64,000 nucleotides of DNA from NCBI GenBank assembly GCA_040387175.1, contig JAZKED010000004.1:8210-72209 (forward strand), given 5' to 3'. This DNA is from Bacteroidota bacterium. Lineage in GTDB: Bacteria > Bacteroidota > Bacteroidia > Flavobacteriales > Flavobacteriaceae. The position numbers and the translations under genes were made by a program. Of the stretch, positions 59,451-63,562 are shown one piece after another. A model generated the notes under the pieces. That model was not told where the DNA came from. It did no database searches and worked only from the letters and a program-made list of their open reading frames with translations. Each line of letters opens with the position of its first letter. Within the stretch, counting starts at the first letter, position 1.

Positions 59451-59669
59451 TTATATTTCAAAAATCACTTTACCTGAAGCCAGCCTTGCAATTTCTTTTA
59501 AATCAGCAGTTGGTTTAGAATCTGCATTTCTGATTATAAAAGTTGCATTATGAGAATTTAATATAGATACAATATTTTTCAACTCTGAAGTTGTCTTGGT
59601 TGAAGCGTCTATATTTAACCATTCTCCCAATCTTGAAAAATCTCTTAAATCTGCGGTTGTTTTTTGCAT
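59451..59669 (-). CDS. 72-aa hypothetical protein with three internal repeats
   Basis: KTTADLRDF / KTTSELKNI / KPTADLKEI at about 22-28 aa spacing; stop lies 17 nt before the exonuclease ATG. Confidence 0.7.
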   Translation of the reverse strand: MQKTTADLRDFSRLGEWLNIDASTKTTSELKNIVSILNSHNATFIIRNADSKPTADLKEIARLASGKVIFEI

Positions 59670-60025: not shown

Positions 60026-62059
60026 CTAGAAAACAATTTCTATGGTTGTTCCATTTCCAATAGCAGAAGTAATATTCATAATTCCATTTATTGCTTTAGC
60101 TCTTTCTTTTATGTTTTTTAATCCAATGCCTGGTTTGGATTTTTCAGGATTAAAACCAATTCCATTGTCCCAAATTCGGATAGTTATTTTATCGCCAGTT
60201 TTCAGAAGAAATACACAACAATTTTCGGCTTTTGAATACTTATTACTGTTTTGTAAGGCTTCTTGAATTATTCTATAAACCTGTATTTTAGCATTACTTG
60301 AGACAGATGTCCAATCAATATATTTATCTATAGATACATCAAATTTTGTGTTGTATTGATTTTGTTGAGATGTCACCAAATTAGTTATCATCTCCGGAAC
60401 GGTTTGGTCTTCAAAAAGAAGATTTTGTTTTAAATCGTGAGAAACTCTTCTGATTTCATTCTCTGCTCTTTCCAATTCTTTAACCAATTGTTGTTTTTTA
60501 TCTAAAGCACCCGGTTCTAATTGAATTAAATTAAAACGGGTCGTGAAAATACTATTTACGATACCATCATGTAATTCCATTGCTATTCGATTTCTTTCTT
60601 CGTTACGAGCATGTTCTGTCTCTGATTGCTGACGCAGCATCAATTGATAAATCTTTTCATTAGCCTCTTGTTGTTCCTTTATAAAAAGTAATTCTTTGTT
60701 TCTAGCTTTTAGACGGTATATAACAAAAAAACCTCCTAAAAGAAAAAGAATAATTGCGGATCCAATGATAATATAGGTGTTTCTTTTGGATAAAACTTCA
60801 TTTTTTTCTTCTACCTGATCTGTTTCATAAGCAATACGGGCAAATTTATTTCTGGTAATCCGTTCTACAGTCTGCATACTATCGCTAACTTTGATATATA
60901 AATCTGTGTAGAATTTTCTATTTTTAATATCATTATCTGATAATAATTTTAAAGACTGAAGTGTTAAATCATTATTTTTTATTTTTCTAGCCAATGCTAA
61001 TCCTTCTTTAGTATAAGCAAGACCTTTTAAAGTATCTTTTTTTAAAAAAAAATATTCACCATAATTTATTTTGTTGGAAGCAATTGTTTGTTTTCTATCA
61101 AGACTGTCACTAAGTTTTGATGATTCATTTAAAAGATTGAGAACGTCTTTAAAATCTTCTGATTTCATTTTTGAATAAGCAAGATTATCTAAAAGCATAG
61201 TATATTCTCTAGGAGATTGTTTTTTTAAATCTTTTACCTGCAGTCCTTTATTATAAAAAAGTACAGCTTCTGAATAATTTCCCATTTTTTCATACACCCT
61301 GCCTATATTATTAAAATTGGTTGCTTTGTATACGATTATTTCTTCTTTTGAAAAGTTTTCTTTATTTAATTCTCTTAAAGCCAGATTAAAATAGTCCAGA
61401 GATTTTTTATAATCGTTTAATCCTTTTAATGATAGAGCTATTAAATTATAGCAATGATAAATCAAATTAGTATTTTCGGTTTTAGATAGTAATTGCATCG
61501 CTTTTACAGCCTCTGTCTCACTTTCTGCAAAATTTCCAGTATTATAAATAACTCCTCCTTTTAAAAAAGAAATAGTACCTAACATTAAGGTATCTTTTTT
61601 TATTTTATATAACTTTTCTGATTTGTTATAATAGCTGAAAGCACTATCATAAACTGATTTATTATTATAATAATCGCCTAGATAGTATAATGTCCTCGCC
61701 ATAAGAATAGTATCCTTTTTTTCAATAGACAAGTGATATAGCTTATTGGTTAATTTATAATATTTTTCAAATCTGATTATATTATAATAATTATTAGCGA
61801 CTTCTAAAATCAAATTCCTATTAATAGAATCATTATTATGTGCCAAAAGAAATTGACTCAGGGTATCTAAAGTTATTTCTTTGGTATTATCATCTGATTC
61901 AGAAGTTTCTAGTTTTTTTAAAATAGTAACAACTTCACTTTTATACTCAGCTGAATCTTTACTTTTCTGACAGGATACTATCAAAAAAAAGAGAATTAAT
62001 AACCCAATTACTTTACTTTTTGTTTTCAATTTTTGAATGACTATTTGAATTAGTATCAA
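60026..62059 (-). CDS. TPR-containing sensor histidine kinase (HisKA_3 plus HATPase); start uncertain (TTG 62059 or 62029)
   Basis: Lipobox-like LIVSC, about six TPR-like repeats, one TM (YIIIGSAIILFLLGGFFVIY), H-box RIAMELHDG, N-box QEALQNSNKY, DNGIGF and GIGLKNI. Confidence 0.92.
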   Translation of the reverse strand: MILIQIVIQKLKTKSKVIGLLILFFLIVSCQKSKDSAEYKSEVVTILKKLETSESDDNTKEITLDTLSQFLLAHNNDSINRNLILEVANNYYNIIRFEKYYKLTNKLYHLSIEKKDTILMARTLYYLGDYYNNKSVYDSAFSYYNKSEKLYKIKKDTLMLGTISFLKGGVIYNTGNFAESETEAVKAMQLLSKTENTNLIYHCYNLIALSLKGLNDYKKSLDYFNLALRELNKENFSKEEIIVYKATNFNNIGRVYEKMGNYSEAVLFYNKGLQVKDLKKQSPREYTMLLDNLAYSKMKSEDFKDVLNLLNESSKLSDSLDRKQTIASNKINYGEYFFLKKDTLKGLAYTKEGLALARKIKNNDLTLQSLKLLSDNDIKNRKFYTDLYIKVSDSMQTVERITRNKFARIAYETDQVEEKNEVLSKRNTYIIIGSAIILFLLGGFFVIYRLKARNKELLFIKEQQEANEKIYQLMLRQQSETEHARNEERNRIAMELHDGIVNSIFTTRFNLIQLEPGALDKKQQLVKELERAENEIRRVSHDLKQNLLFEDQTVPEMITNLVTSQQNQYNTKFDVSIDKYIDWTSVSSNAKIQVYRIIQEALQNSNKYSKAENCCVFLLKTGDKITIRIWDNGIGFNPEKSKPGIGLKNIKERAKAINGIMNITSAIGNGTTIEIVF

Positions 62060-62071
62060 AAATATATATTT

Positions 62072-62104
62072 AAAACCAGATAATGTTTTTATTACCTGGT
62101 TTTA
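62072..62104 (-). terminator. Hairpin between the lipopeptide gene and the kinase gene
   Basis: Minus strand AAAACCAGGTAAT-AAAAAC-ATTATCTGGTTTT, starting about 13 nt after the peptide stop. Confidence 0.6.
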
Positions 62105-62117
62105 GTATTTAAAATAA

Positions 62118-62303
62118 TTATTTTTTAATAGGAGGAATAATAACATCTCCCCCGTCTGCTGAAATATCAATAGGTTTTACAATAGTAGCTTTACTTGGAG
62201 TGACTGAATTTTCATTTTGAGTTTCTATAGGGCTATCTTCAGTACAAGAAGACATTGAAACAATAGCAGTAAAACAAACGGCAATAATTAATAGCTTTTT
62301 CAT
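62118..62303 (-). CDS. 61-aa putative lipopeptide (SPase II signal; probable start ATG 62303)
   Basis: MKKLLIIAVCFTAIVSMSS-C, then a low-complexity linker and C-terminal ADGGDVIIPPIKK. Confidence 0.75.
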   Translation of the reverse strand: MKKLLIIAVCFTAIVSMSSCTEDSPIETQNENSVTPSKATIVKPIDISADGGDVIIPPIKK

Positions 62304-62745
62304 AAAAATATAATTTAAAAAATTAGATAATAATTTAGTATGGCGTTCCATTCTGGAATACCTATTTTTAAGAAAAACTGGGAATTAGTTTATTCTAGAC
62401 TACCAAGAATGACATCACTTTACCAGCGAATTTTTCCCCATTCTCGATAATGATTTTTCAAAAAAGAGATTGATTTGTGAATCAAACTCAGGGCAAATTA
62501 ACAGGTTAAAAATCATTATTTTATCTAATTTCAGATCCATCTTGTGAGTGTGTTCATTACACTAGCATAAGGGTATATCGAAATGGTGAAACCCTAAGTT
62601 TTGAAAATAGCAATAAACTATCATTAAGACTACTCTTTGAAATACAAGGAATTAACGTGTTAAATTTAAAGTGTTAATGCAAATTTTGCTATAAAATAAT
62701 TACACATTAAAAATTTAATATGAATAGAAGAAATAGAAAAAAAAA

Positions 62746-63459
62746 CTAAATATTAATTTTTCTAATTATAGCTTCAACATTATCTCTATAGTTAAGAGAA
62801 AAAGGCAAGATTATATCATAATTCAGATAACACTTTGATTTGCTAAAATGAATTCTTGAAACCTGATTGATATTCACAATATAACTTTTGTGAATTCTTA
62901 AAAAATAGAAAGGCAAAGTGGTTTCAAAATGCTTTAAAGTTTTAAAAGCATTTACGGTATTGCCATTGTATAATTGAATGTCGGTAGTATTGTTATCAGA
63001 CTTCAGATAAAGAATATCTTGCAAAGCAACAAAATGATAATCACTATAGGATTTAATACAAATAGTTGAAACATTTGGTACTGGATTTCTTTTTTCAAAT
63101 TGGAATAAGCTTTTTCCCAATTGATGTATCTGTAATGGCATTAAGACATAATCTGAAAATCCCGATTGTATAGCTGTAAAAGCATAATCCGGAGTTATAG
63201 ATAATGCCATAAAATATGGAATTGCATCTAAATATTGAAAGGATTCTTTTATAATTTCAAAAATAAAATTAGTATCTTTCGATTTAGCTGGAATTTGAAC
63301 AATTACCAATTGTGGCTTTAGTTTTATGATTTCTTTTATGGCAGTTTGACTATCTTTGACAATTCCAGCGCAAAAATAATTTGGAAAATTTTCGAATACA
63401 TCTAAAATTTCCTTTACTGTGCTGTCGTTATTATCAATAATAAGGAATGAAAAACGCAT
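62746..63459 (-). CDS. LytTR-family regulator with a pseudo-receiver domain
   Basis: LytTR domain (DILYLKSDNNTT...FLRIHKSYIVN). The receiver lacks the second acidic residue (IIDNN), the phosphoacceptor Asp (LVIVQI) and the Lys (DYVLMP). Confidence 0.88.
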   Translation of the reverse strand: MRFSFLIIDNNDSTVKEILDVFENFPNYFCAGIVKDSQTAIKEIIKLKPQLVIVQIPAKSKDTNFIFEIIKESFQYLDAIPYFMALSITPDYAFTAIQSGFSDYVLMPLQIHQLGKSLFQFEKRNPVPNVSTICIKSYSDYHFVALQDILYLKSDNNTTDIQLYNGNTVNAFKTLKHFETTLPFYFLRIHKSYIVNINQVSRIHFSKSKCYLNYDIILPFSLNYRDNVEAIIRKINI

Positions 63460-63562
63460 AAATTCATACTAAAATAAGGAGACTGCAATCTAAACAAGAA
63501 CAAATTTCTTTTGGTGCAGAAAAACTGCCTATTTTGTTAAAATTTAAATAATATAATTTATA

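Follow-up and report, generated by a model that had tools for sequence, protein, structure and literature searches.

Signalling from cell to cell by means of peptides is regarded as characteristic of Gram-positive bacteria. In the Rap-Phr and NprR-NprX systems of Bacillota (RRNPP family), the gene for a small Sec-exported pro-peptide adjoins that for a tetratricopeptide repeat (TPR) receptor; the active part is C-terminal, peptide and receptor co-diversify rapidly, and some pro-peptides are multi-copy, showing tandemly duplicated pheromone units (PMC5199041, PMC11343458). In the agr (AgrD/AgrC) and com/blp (ComC/ComD) systems, the peptide gene adjoins those for a sensor kinase and a LytTR-domain regulator, and sequence is hypervariable in a block that takes in the mature peptide and the sensor part of the kinase; the kinase core and the regulator are conserved and alleles are exchanged between lineages. 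FimS of Porphyromonas gingivalis has a periplasmic TPR domain before its cytoplasmic kinase core; the signal it senses has been stated to be unknown (PMC11053733). Finally, the small lipoproteins NlpE (acting on CpxA) and RcsF act on the periplasmic domain of a sensor. All these arrangements have likenesses in a locus found within 64,000 nucleotides (nt) of DNA from a member of the Flavobacteriaceae (GenBank assembly GCA_040387175.1, contig JAZKED010000004.1, positions 8,210 to 72,209, forward strand; this whole stretch is referred to as the window). The locus is centred on a mini open reading frame (mini-ORF) for an exported lipoprotein-type peptide precursor, flanked by genes for a LytTR-domain protein and a TPR-sensor histidine kinase; its host genus is Flavobacterium. 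A literature search found no description of this cassette, nor of peptide signalling in Bacteroidota.

Searches using the peptide as the query returned no paralogue in its own genome and only one convincing orthologue among 36 congeneric genomes. The mature part evolves too fast for such searches, a difficulty solved by using the neighbouring LytTR protein as the search anchor. In this way 80 loci were collected, among which the recurring genes were those for the LytTR protein (80/80), the response regulator (71) and the kinase (69), plus the mini-ORF, and no others. In 63 loci the LytTR gene stood directly before the kinase gene, and in 62 of these a mini-ORF of 44-96 amino acids (aa) coding for a signal peptide lay between the two. 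On this synteny, the mini-ORF is assigned to a four-gene Flavobacteriaceae cassette made up of an atypical LytTR regulator, the mini-ORF, the TPR-sensor histidine kinase and a response regulator. Of 401 Flavobacterium species sampled, about 90 had full-length LytTR orthologues, in two copies in five cases; the cassette itself was present in roughly one fifth of the sampled species. Carriers that can be cultivated and are not pathogenic include F. pectinovorum DSM 6368, F. fluvii DSM 19978, F. xanthum DSM 3661 and, with a peptide of the tandem type described below, F. daejeonense DSM 17708. Among 400 genomes sampled evenly over the phylum, only eight contained LytTR orthologues, all of the same family and spread over seven genera. 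A collection of 5.8 billion proteins yielded just three further close homologues of the peptide (P0002-P0004), all metagenomic. Pfam gave no match to the peptide at the curated threshold, and NCBIfam only sub-threshold matches to its signal peptide. Two of the latter were rejected: that to the PG1828 family lipoprotein (NF050142; 21.6 bits, cut-off 50) covered residues 1-42 only, ending 22 residues into the mature part, and that to the NprX pheromone was centred on the signal peptide.

The mini-ORF (ATG at 62303, stop codon at 62120-62118) codes for the 61-aa product MKKLLIIAVCFTAIVSMSSCTEDSPIETQNENSVTPSKATIVKPIDISADGGDVIIPPIKK, which divides into MKKLLIIAVCFTAIVSMSSC, TEDSPIETQNENSVTPSKATIVKPIDIS and ADGGDVIIPPIKK. 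Its N-terminus consists of MKK, the 12-residue hydrophobic core LLIIAVCFTAIV and the residues S-M-S-S-C20 (in the context V-S-M-S-S-C). Bacterial lipoproteins processed by signal peptidase II (SPII) have a positive n-region, a hydrophobic core and a lipobox, [LVI..][AST..][GAS]-C, within the first 15-35 residues. All three elements were recognized here, the lipobox being judged by this rule and by eye, and the product is predicted to be a lipoprotein lipidated at Cys20, the residue at which a preceding sequence-only reading had placed the lipobox. The same reading had described a 28-residue polar linker and a 42-aa mature part downstream of the signal peptide, both of which agree with the translation, and had seen no foldable domain. 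In keeping with the latter, an AlphaFold2 model showed a helix at residues 3-19 only and coil elsewhere (predicted local distance difference test, pLDDT, 63.8; predicted template modelling score, pTM, 0.22), with the caveat that it was made from a single sequence. The lipobox Cys was present in about 44 of the 62 mini-ORFs; the remaining ∼18 had an otherwise homologous signal peptide without it. A longer, 77-aa reading of the frame from ATG 62351, already suspected of being over-extended, can be set aside since all orthologues begin MKK, MKN or MKT, the start context TTTTTT-ATG-AAA-AAG-CT is nearly invariant among them, and an in-frame TAA lies 12 nt 5′ of the ATG in most. The window differs by 2 nt, so that the frame upstream of ATG 62303 happens to open.

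Among the closest homologues, the C-terminal tail was ∼86% identical and the middle linker ∼29%. The tail ADGGDVIIPPIKK that the sequence-only reading had singled out is thus the conserved, functional-looking part of the mature product. Its variants in these homologues were SADGGDVIIPPIKK, SADGGDPTIPPIKK, SADGDGTPPPVKK and TADGDGPIPPIKK; the Cys-proximal stretch was also conserved (variants CTEDSPIETQNENS). Tails like that of the window recurred in cassettes whose LytTR proteins were only ∼40% identical (ADGEPIIPKTKG, DGGPVIPPGPRP). A tail motif, defined as G-[G/D/E] or D-G in the last 20 residues plus K/R in the last six, was found in 52 of the 62 precursors, compared to 12.6 ± 3.0 in within-sequence shuffles (maximum 24); the last Gly pair of the motif lay 7-15 residues from the C-terminus. 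The question of whether the motif GG-x(4)-PP is conserved or lineage-specific, raised by the sequence-only reading, thus receives a divided answer: G-[G/D] and the basic end are family-wide, but PP is lineage-specific, other alleles ending in AIDGVNPPRP, GDDNIDKTKT, KDKTKT, GVDDKDKSQG or EIGDNPPPKPPTDPRP. Over the family as a whole, the conserved parts of the precursor were the signal peptide and the C-terminal unit.

In distant cassettes, the signal peptide was followed by three to five head-to-tail copies of one GG-containing unit of 11-15 residues. These units were DLFGGATNTTRKS (five copies), GGSRQIKTDYT(FNT) (five), NDGGGKRDIKTDFT (four), IDGGSRNIKTDNIAN (four), IIGGNATGGNMKLD (three) and EIGGQESRNGKFS (four); in a closer relative (G308) the tail unit IDGVNPPRP occurred twice. 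Within any one gene the unit cores differed almost only synonymously, the exceptions being an M/V difference in the last unit of locus L120 and variation in the spacers, while the sister loci L118 and L119 were distinguished by an N/T replacement in all four units. Such near-synonymous differences, a pattern familiar from multi-copy pheromone precursors (PMC5199041, PMC11343458), directly attest translation as well as selection acting on the unit itself; codon comparison thus shows the tandem units to be under purifying selection.

Two known uses of a GG motif were considered and rejected. Double-glycine leaders of the ComC/bacteriocin type are N-terminal, end in GG, lack a Sec signal and are cut by a nearby ATP-binding cassette (ABC) exporter with a C39 peptidase. 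In the window a Sec/lipoprotein signal precedes the GG, which is 11 residues away from the C-terminus, and no C39 ABC gene recurred nearby. In GlyGly-CTERM (rhombosortase) signals, a complete transmembrane helix comes after the GG and a basic cluster closes the C-terminus; here only seven residues (DVIIPPI) separate GG from KK, and the orthologue tails are hydrophilic (GDDKDKTQG, DGVNPPRP). Since GG is part of the selected unit in the tandem-repeat relatives, maturation by a cut after GG, which would release DVIIPPIKK, is just one scheme among several that are possible.

The residues that follow the Cys in the window, C-T-E-D-S-P-I-E, and in orthologues, C-T-A-D-S-x-E and C-T-A-D-D-L-D-E, resemble, without matching it exactly, the consensus of the Bacteroidetes lipoprotein export signal (C-X-K-(D/E)2-X, SDDDD or SDDFE; PMC5080379). 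In lipoproteins bearing this signal, the residue at +2 from the lipid Cys is polar and acidic residues occupy +3 to +6. Because of its own acidic residues next to the Cys, the precursor may first be displayed at the cell surface. The general O-glycosylation sequon of Bacteroidota is D-(S/T)-(A/I/L/V/M/T). The D-S-[V/L/I/M] found after the lipid Cys in several orthologues (L055, L056, L063, L074 and others) fits this sequon; the D-S-P of the window allele does not.

The mature peptide and the TPR sensor of the kinase were found to vary together. Over 27 close cassettes, mean pairwise identity was 73.9% for the LytTR protein, 74.2% for the cytoplasmic part of the kinase, 61.9% for the response regulator, 54.5% for the TPR sensor, 56.6% for the peptide signal sequence and 20.1% for the mature peptide. 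When L055 was compared with L056 and L057 in sliding windows, the DNA was 93-100% identical over the regulator, the LytTR gene, the leader and the signal-peptide codons, fell to 33-44% in the mature-peptide codons and to 48-73% across the TPR region, and rose again to 91-100% near kinase residue 450, a little beyond the transmembrane helix. The comparison of L055 with L059 gave the reverse pattern, with the tail AIDGV(N/D)PPRP in common. Similarly, L060 resembled L058 and L061 in the LytTR protein (96%) and the kinase core (94-95%), while their TPR domains were 60-61% identical and their peptides unlike; compared with L062, its peptide was alike, with values of 83% (LytTR), 81% (core) and 84% (TPR). 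Finally, the window cassette and that of a metagenome contig (L137) had like tails and TPR domains 73% identical (kinase core 86%, LytTR 95%), whereas against L053 the tail was unlike and TPR identity was 52% (kinase core 83%, LytTR 92%); the two comparisons are treated as equal in flank identity. In partial Mantel tests, peptide similarity was associated with TPR similarity once the kinase core was allowed for (r = 0.62, p = 0.0002), but not with the core once the TPR was allowed for (r = 0.005, p = 0.46). As read from these alignments, the three independent discordances show the mature peptide and the TPR domain to be inherited as a block, and the variable block to coincide exactly with the predicted extracytoplasmic parts of both gene products. 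Both break-points fall at membrane boundaries, which speaks for a functional cause. The proposal of a ligand or of a signalling precursor, made in the sequence-only reading, fits this co-inheritance and the tandem-unit relatives; the GG is not a double-glycine leader site.

The kinase gene begins 90 nt 3′ of the mini-ORF, most likely at TTG 62029, which would make the listed ORF over-extended. Read from this codon, the product has the Cys of a lipobox of its own at position 20 (LIVSC-QKSK); its orthologues begin LKTK... and have retained ..SCQKK, and a promoter box overlaps the alternative start at 62059. With this start, the TPR sensor would be held at both ends, by the lipid and by the transmembrane helix. 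The TPR domain is placed outside the cytoplasm because it is located between the lipobox signal and the single transmembrane helix. An AlphaFold2 model of kinase residues 21-430, built on a 39-sequence alignment, was an all-helical solenoid of ∼18 helices followed by a long helix running into the membrane (pLDDT 91.2, pTM 0.83). In Foldseek searches, the solved structures nearest to it were 8-repeat TPRs whose inner groove grips a peptide in extended form. Complexes of LGN/Pins with NuMA, Inscuteable or Frmpd came first (E about 1e-9, template modelling score 0.58-0.64), and peptide-bound Rap and NprR, both pheromone receptors, came next (E 1e-7 to 1e-6, score 0.55-0.64). The modelled fold is therefore compatible with peptide binding, of which it is no specific proof. 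The NCBIfam match of the TPR part to FimS, the nearest kinase in architecture, scored 19.7 bits against a cut-off of 600 and does not make the kinase an equivalog.

The reading that we favour, with moderate confidence, is that the mini-ORF product and the TPR kinase form a cognate ligand-receptor specificity pair; processing, release, binding and output are inferred as follows. Sec would export the precursor, Cys20 would be lipidated, and the lipoprotein might then be flipped to the cell surface. A protease not encoded in the cassette would then free the C-terminal unit, the working part of ∼12 residues, (A)DGGDVIIPPIKK, which would most likely act between cells. The freed unit would bind in the groove of an allele-matched TPR superhelix in the periplasm, and binding would shift the kinase or phosphatase output, via the HisKA_3 core, to the divergent response regulator. 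Mature peptide and TPR domain together would constitute the specificity module ('pherotype') of the cassette. That the peptide is a released intercellular signal is held more tentatively, at a little under an even chance.

Several observations weigh against the ligand-receptor reading or its intercellular form. One of the 63 cassettes (L096) lacked the mini-ORF. No dedicated protease, exporter or importer recurred near the cassettes in the 80 loci (an ABC transporter 1.1 kb past the response regulator was not conserved and had no peptidase domain), and a peptide of 1-1.5 kDa would have to leave and re-enter through the outer membrane. The likeness of the TPR fold to peptide receptors is generic. 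Further, the mature-peptide and TPR codons are adjacent, so linkage within one recombination block may partly explain their co-inheritance, and the reading assigns no function to the LytTR protein. Lastly, with peptide and sensor both lipid-anchored and next to each other, the action could be confined to cis. Such a peptide would be an accessory lipoprotein that stays in the envelope of the producer and modulates its own kinase via the TPR domain, reporting on lipoprotein trafficking or the state of the envelope in the manner of NlpE-CpxA, RcsF-Rcs or MgrB-PhoQ. Lipoboxes on both partners would put both at the membrane surface, co-variation of peptide and TPR is expected of any interacting pair, and the absence of exporter and protease genes from the cassette agrees with this. 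However, ∼18 of the 62 family members have no lipobox Cys, stress sensors are usually conserved, unlike this pair, and the acidic residues after the Cys look like a surface-export signal; tandem identical units and the allele-like exchange of blocks between species are typical of signal-receptor specificity. A purely cis-acting lipoprotein is thus thought rather unlikely.

Still less probable is that the peptide is a product of the regulatory system and not its ligand, be it an adhesive, antimicrobial or immunomodulatory effector, either secreted or at the cell surface, or a plain target gene, with hitch-hiking as the cause of its co-variation with the TPR domain. Although the two variable segments adjoin and the peptide gene has a promoter region and terminator of its own, the edges of the block fall at the signal-peptide/mature junction and at the kinase transmembrane helix, and peptide similarity predicts the TPR domain and not the equally linked kinase core. 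Known bacteriocins, moreover, differ from the tails, which are short and polar, contain no Cys and are acidic or neutral for the most part, and immunity and transporter genes were not found in the cassette. It is hardly credible, in turn, that the ORF is spurious and its frame incidental, the conserved entity being a structured RNA or regulatory DNA upstream. The ∼300 nt 5′ of the ATG are indeed more conserved as DNA than is the ORF. Stops and frameshifts in homologous loci, named by the sequence-only reading as signs of a false gene, were nevertheless not what was seen: 62 of the 63 cassettes kept an open frame in this position in spite of a mature part only ∼20% identical, the signal-peptide character was always retained, length changes stayed in frame, the cores of the tandem units differed almost only synonymously, and the start context was invariant. 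On sequence grounds, the mini-ORF is a real gene, far beyond chance.

Table 1. Features of the peptide-kinase cassette, in window coordinates.
Feature	Position	Strand	Evidence or remarks
Sensor histidine kinase	60026..62029	minus	Pfam TPR_12/TPR_1/2/8, HisKA_3, HATPase_c
Single transmembrane helix of the kinase (residues 419-440), end of the hypervariable block	60710..60775	minus	identity recovers at ~residue 450
Periplasmic TPR sensor domain (~residues 21-410), proposed peptide receptor	60800..61969	minus	AlphaFold2 model, Foldseek, co-variation with the peptide
TATTTTTG, matching the -7 box TAnnTTTG	62057..62064	minus	before the kinase gene; T-A-n-n-TTTG conserved in 30 loci
Intrinsic terminator-like hairpin and T-run	62071..62104	minus	directly after the mini-ORF stop
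Mini-ORF, predicted exported lipoprotein-type peptide precursor, 61 aa plus stop	62118..62303	minus	syntenic mini-ORF in 62/63 cassettes; close homologues P0002-P0004
C-terminal unit ADGGDVIIPPIKK, residues 49-61, proposed recognition/mature peptide	62121..62159	minus	kept in P0002-P0004; recurs in distant cassettes
Acidic Cys-proximal stretch TEDSPIETQNENS, then hypervariable polar linker (residues 21-48)	62160..62243	minus	N-proximal island kept, middle variable
Signal peptide (residues 1-19) and lipobox Cys20 codon (62246..62244)	62244..62303	minus	MKKLLIIAVCFTAIVSMSS-C; Cys in ~44/62 relatives; AlphaFold2 helix 3-19
Leader/promoter region of the mini-ORF, hairpins 62451-62399, 62395-62372 and 62362-62342	62304..62600	minus	covariation
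LytTR DNA-binding protein, atypical receiver (Gln at the phospho-acceptor)	62746..63459	minus	Pfam LytTR
Response regulator, 218 aa, canonical receiver residues	63563..64000, runs past the window to 64219	plus, divergent	in 71/80 loci

The leader of the mini-ORF contains three hairpins (Table 1) in which 94.1% of the alignment cells were paired, against 38-57% in slid controls. Compensatory changes were found at 14 pairs (3-5 in the slid controls), and none of 500 shuffles reached the observed value. Invariant G-U pairs fix the strand of the leader RNA as the minus strand. Rfam gave no match for the leader; an attenuator, a small RNA or a protein-binding site are candidates for its function. 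A stem-loop with a T-run followed the mini-ORF stop in all 30 cassettes folded, distant ones included; the stems were lineage-specific, with z values from -0.5 to -8.5 (below -2.5 in 28 of the 30). TAnnTTTG is the -7 promoter box of Bacteroidetes. The presence of a terminator and of this box before the kinase gene suggests, in part by inference, that the peptide gene forms its own transcription unit. No shared upstream regulator box could be defined in the cassette, in which TTTCACC occurs only once.

In the LytTR family, the acceptor column held Asp in 8 of 81 proteins; Glu was the commonest residue (32/81), prevailing among the distant members, and the other residues were various, the close clade having Gln, Arg, Gly or Ser. 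Since the acceptor Asp is mostly replaced, the LytTR protein is probably not the phospho-partner of the kinase. HisKA_3 kinases normally pair with NarL/LuxR-type regulators; in the divergent response regulator, Pfam called no C-terminal helix-turn-helix. Between the LytTR gene and the regulator lies a highly conserved divergent intergenic region of 100 nt (63460-63562), with a direct repeat, TTTAAC-TTTAAC, and a palindrome, GCAG-N5-CTGC, as candidate operator sites. In the comparison of L055 (positions 1711-1891) with L056 and L057, identity over LytTR receiver residues ∼48-108 fell to 72-80%, the gene being otherwise 93-98% identical; this patch was not seen in the L060/L058 pair. A second LytTR-domain gene of the genome to which the window belongs, for a 274-aa protein (G000:C1:208516-209295; L133/L135), was 53% identical to that of the window over the LytTR domain and belongs to a different group, widespread in the genus.

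Two paralogous cassettes with different peptides were seen in NZ_JAHEBT01 (L063, L101), in a Gelidibacter metagenome-assembled genome (L081, L083) and in five further genomes (G189, G127, G162, G301, G390), a multiplicity also found for Rap-Phr systems. In a variant cassette (L123-L132) the gene order was LytTR, regulator, X, kinase. For at least three members of this group (L123, L126, L127), X was a secreted protein of 117-126 aa in place of the mini-peptide; in the remaining ones X was not detected by the detector used. Just 3′ of the kinase gene, loci L099 and L103 (6875-7045) had a Cys-rich 56-aa ORF with a signal peptide (…CTGSSNFNACKNCKYCKYCAKNGGTCGVCR). In the window, a 72-aa ORF with no Pfam family lies 3′ of the kinase gene (59451-59669, minus strand), outside the conserved cassette.

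Taken together, these results allow the tentative proposal, for which we claim rather less than even confidence, that the cassette may be the first peptide-pheromone system of Bacteroidota. In it, a lipoprotein (in some relatives a Sec-secreted polyprotein of tandem units) would be exported, displayed and clipped to a peptide of 9-15 residues; lineages would use different dialects, each read in the periplasm by an allele-matched TPR kinase, and the blocks would be exchanged among Flavobacterium species. If this is true, TPR-sensor kinases such as FimS, which are common in Bacteroidota, would gain their first ligand class, and pro-peptides a route of export via the lipoprotein pathway; kin discrimination and quorum sensing would be opened to study in ecologically dominant aquatic and soil bacteria. 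The cassette offers a directly testable ligand-receptor pair, and natural near-isogenic allele swaps, such as those of the L055 and L056 strains, provide ready specificity controls.

The cassette departs from each of the systems that it resembles. Membership of RRNPP was rejected: the receptor of that family is a cytoplasmic TPR protein that binds an imported oligopeptide, whereas the TPR domain of the cassette would be extracytoplasmic and is fused to a membrane histidine kinase, so that no Opp-type import into the cytoplasm would be needed. The host is also a diderm, the precursor is often a predicted lipoprotein, and there is no sequence homology. No peptide gene has been described next to fimS. 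NlpE and RcsF, unlike the mini-ORF product, are conserved, folded proteins without tandem units that are not encoded beside the kinase as a hypervariable pair. A three-component system of the Agr/Com type, in which an HPK10 kinase phosphorylates the LytTR regulator, was likewise rejected: here a HisKA_3 kinase with a TPR sensor takes the place of the polytopic HPK10, the LytTR proteins mostly lack the acceptor Asp (Gln in the window) and a second regulator has canonical receiver residues, and export would proceed by Sec/SPII and not by AgrB or a C39 ABC exporter. What the cassette does have in common with agr and com is the hypervariable block across mature peptide and kinase sensor, seen here both in the sliding-window mosaics and in the partial Mantel tests.

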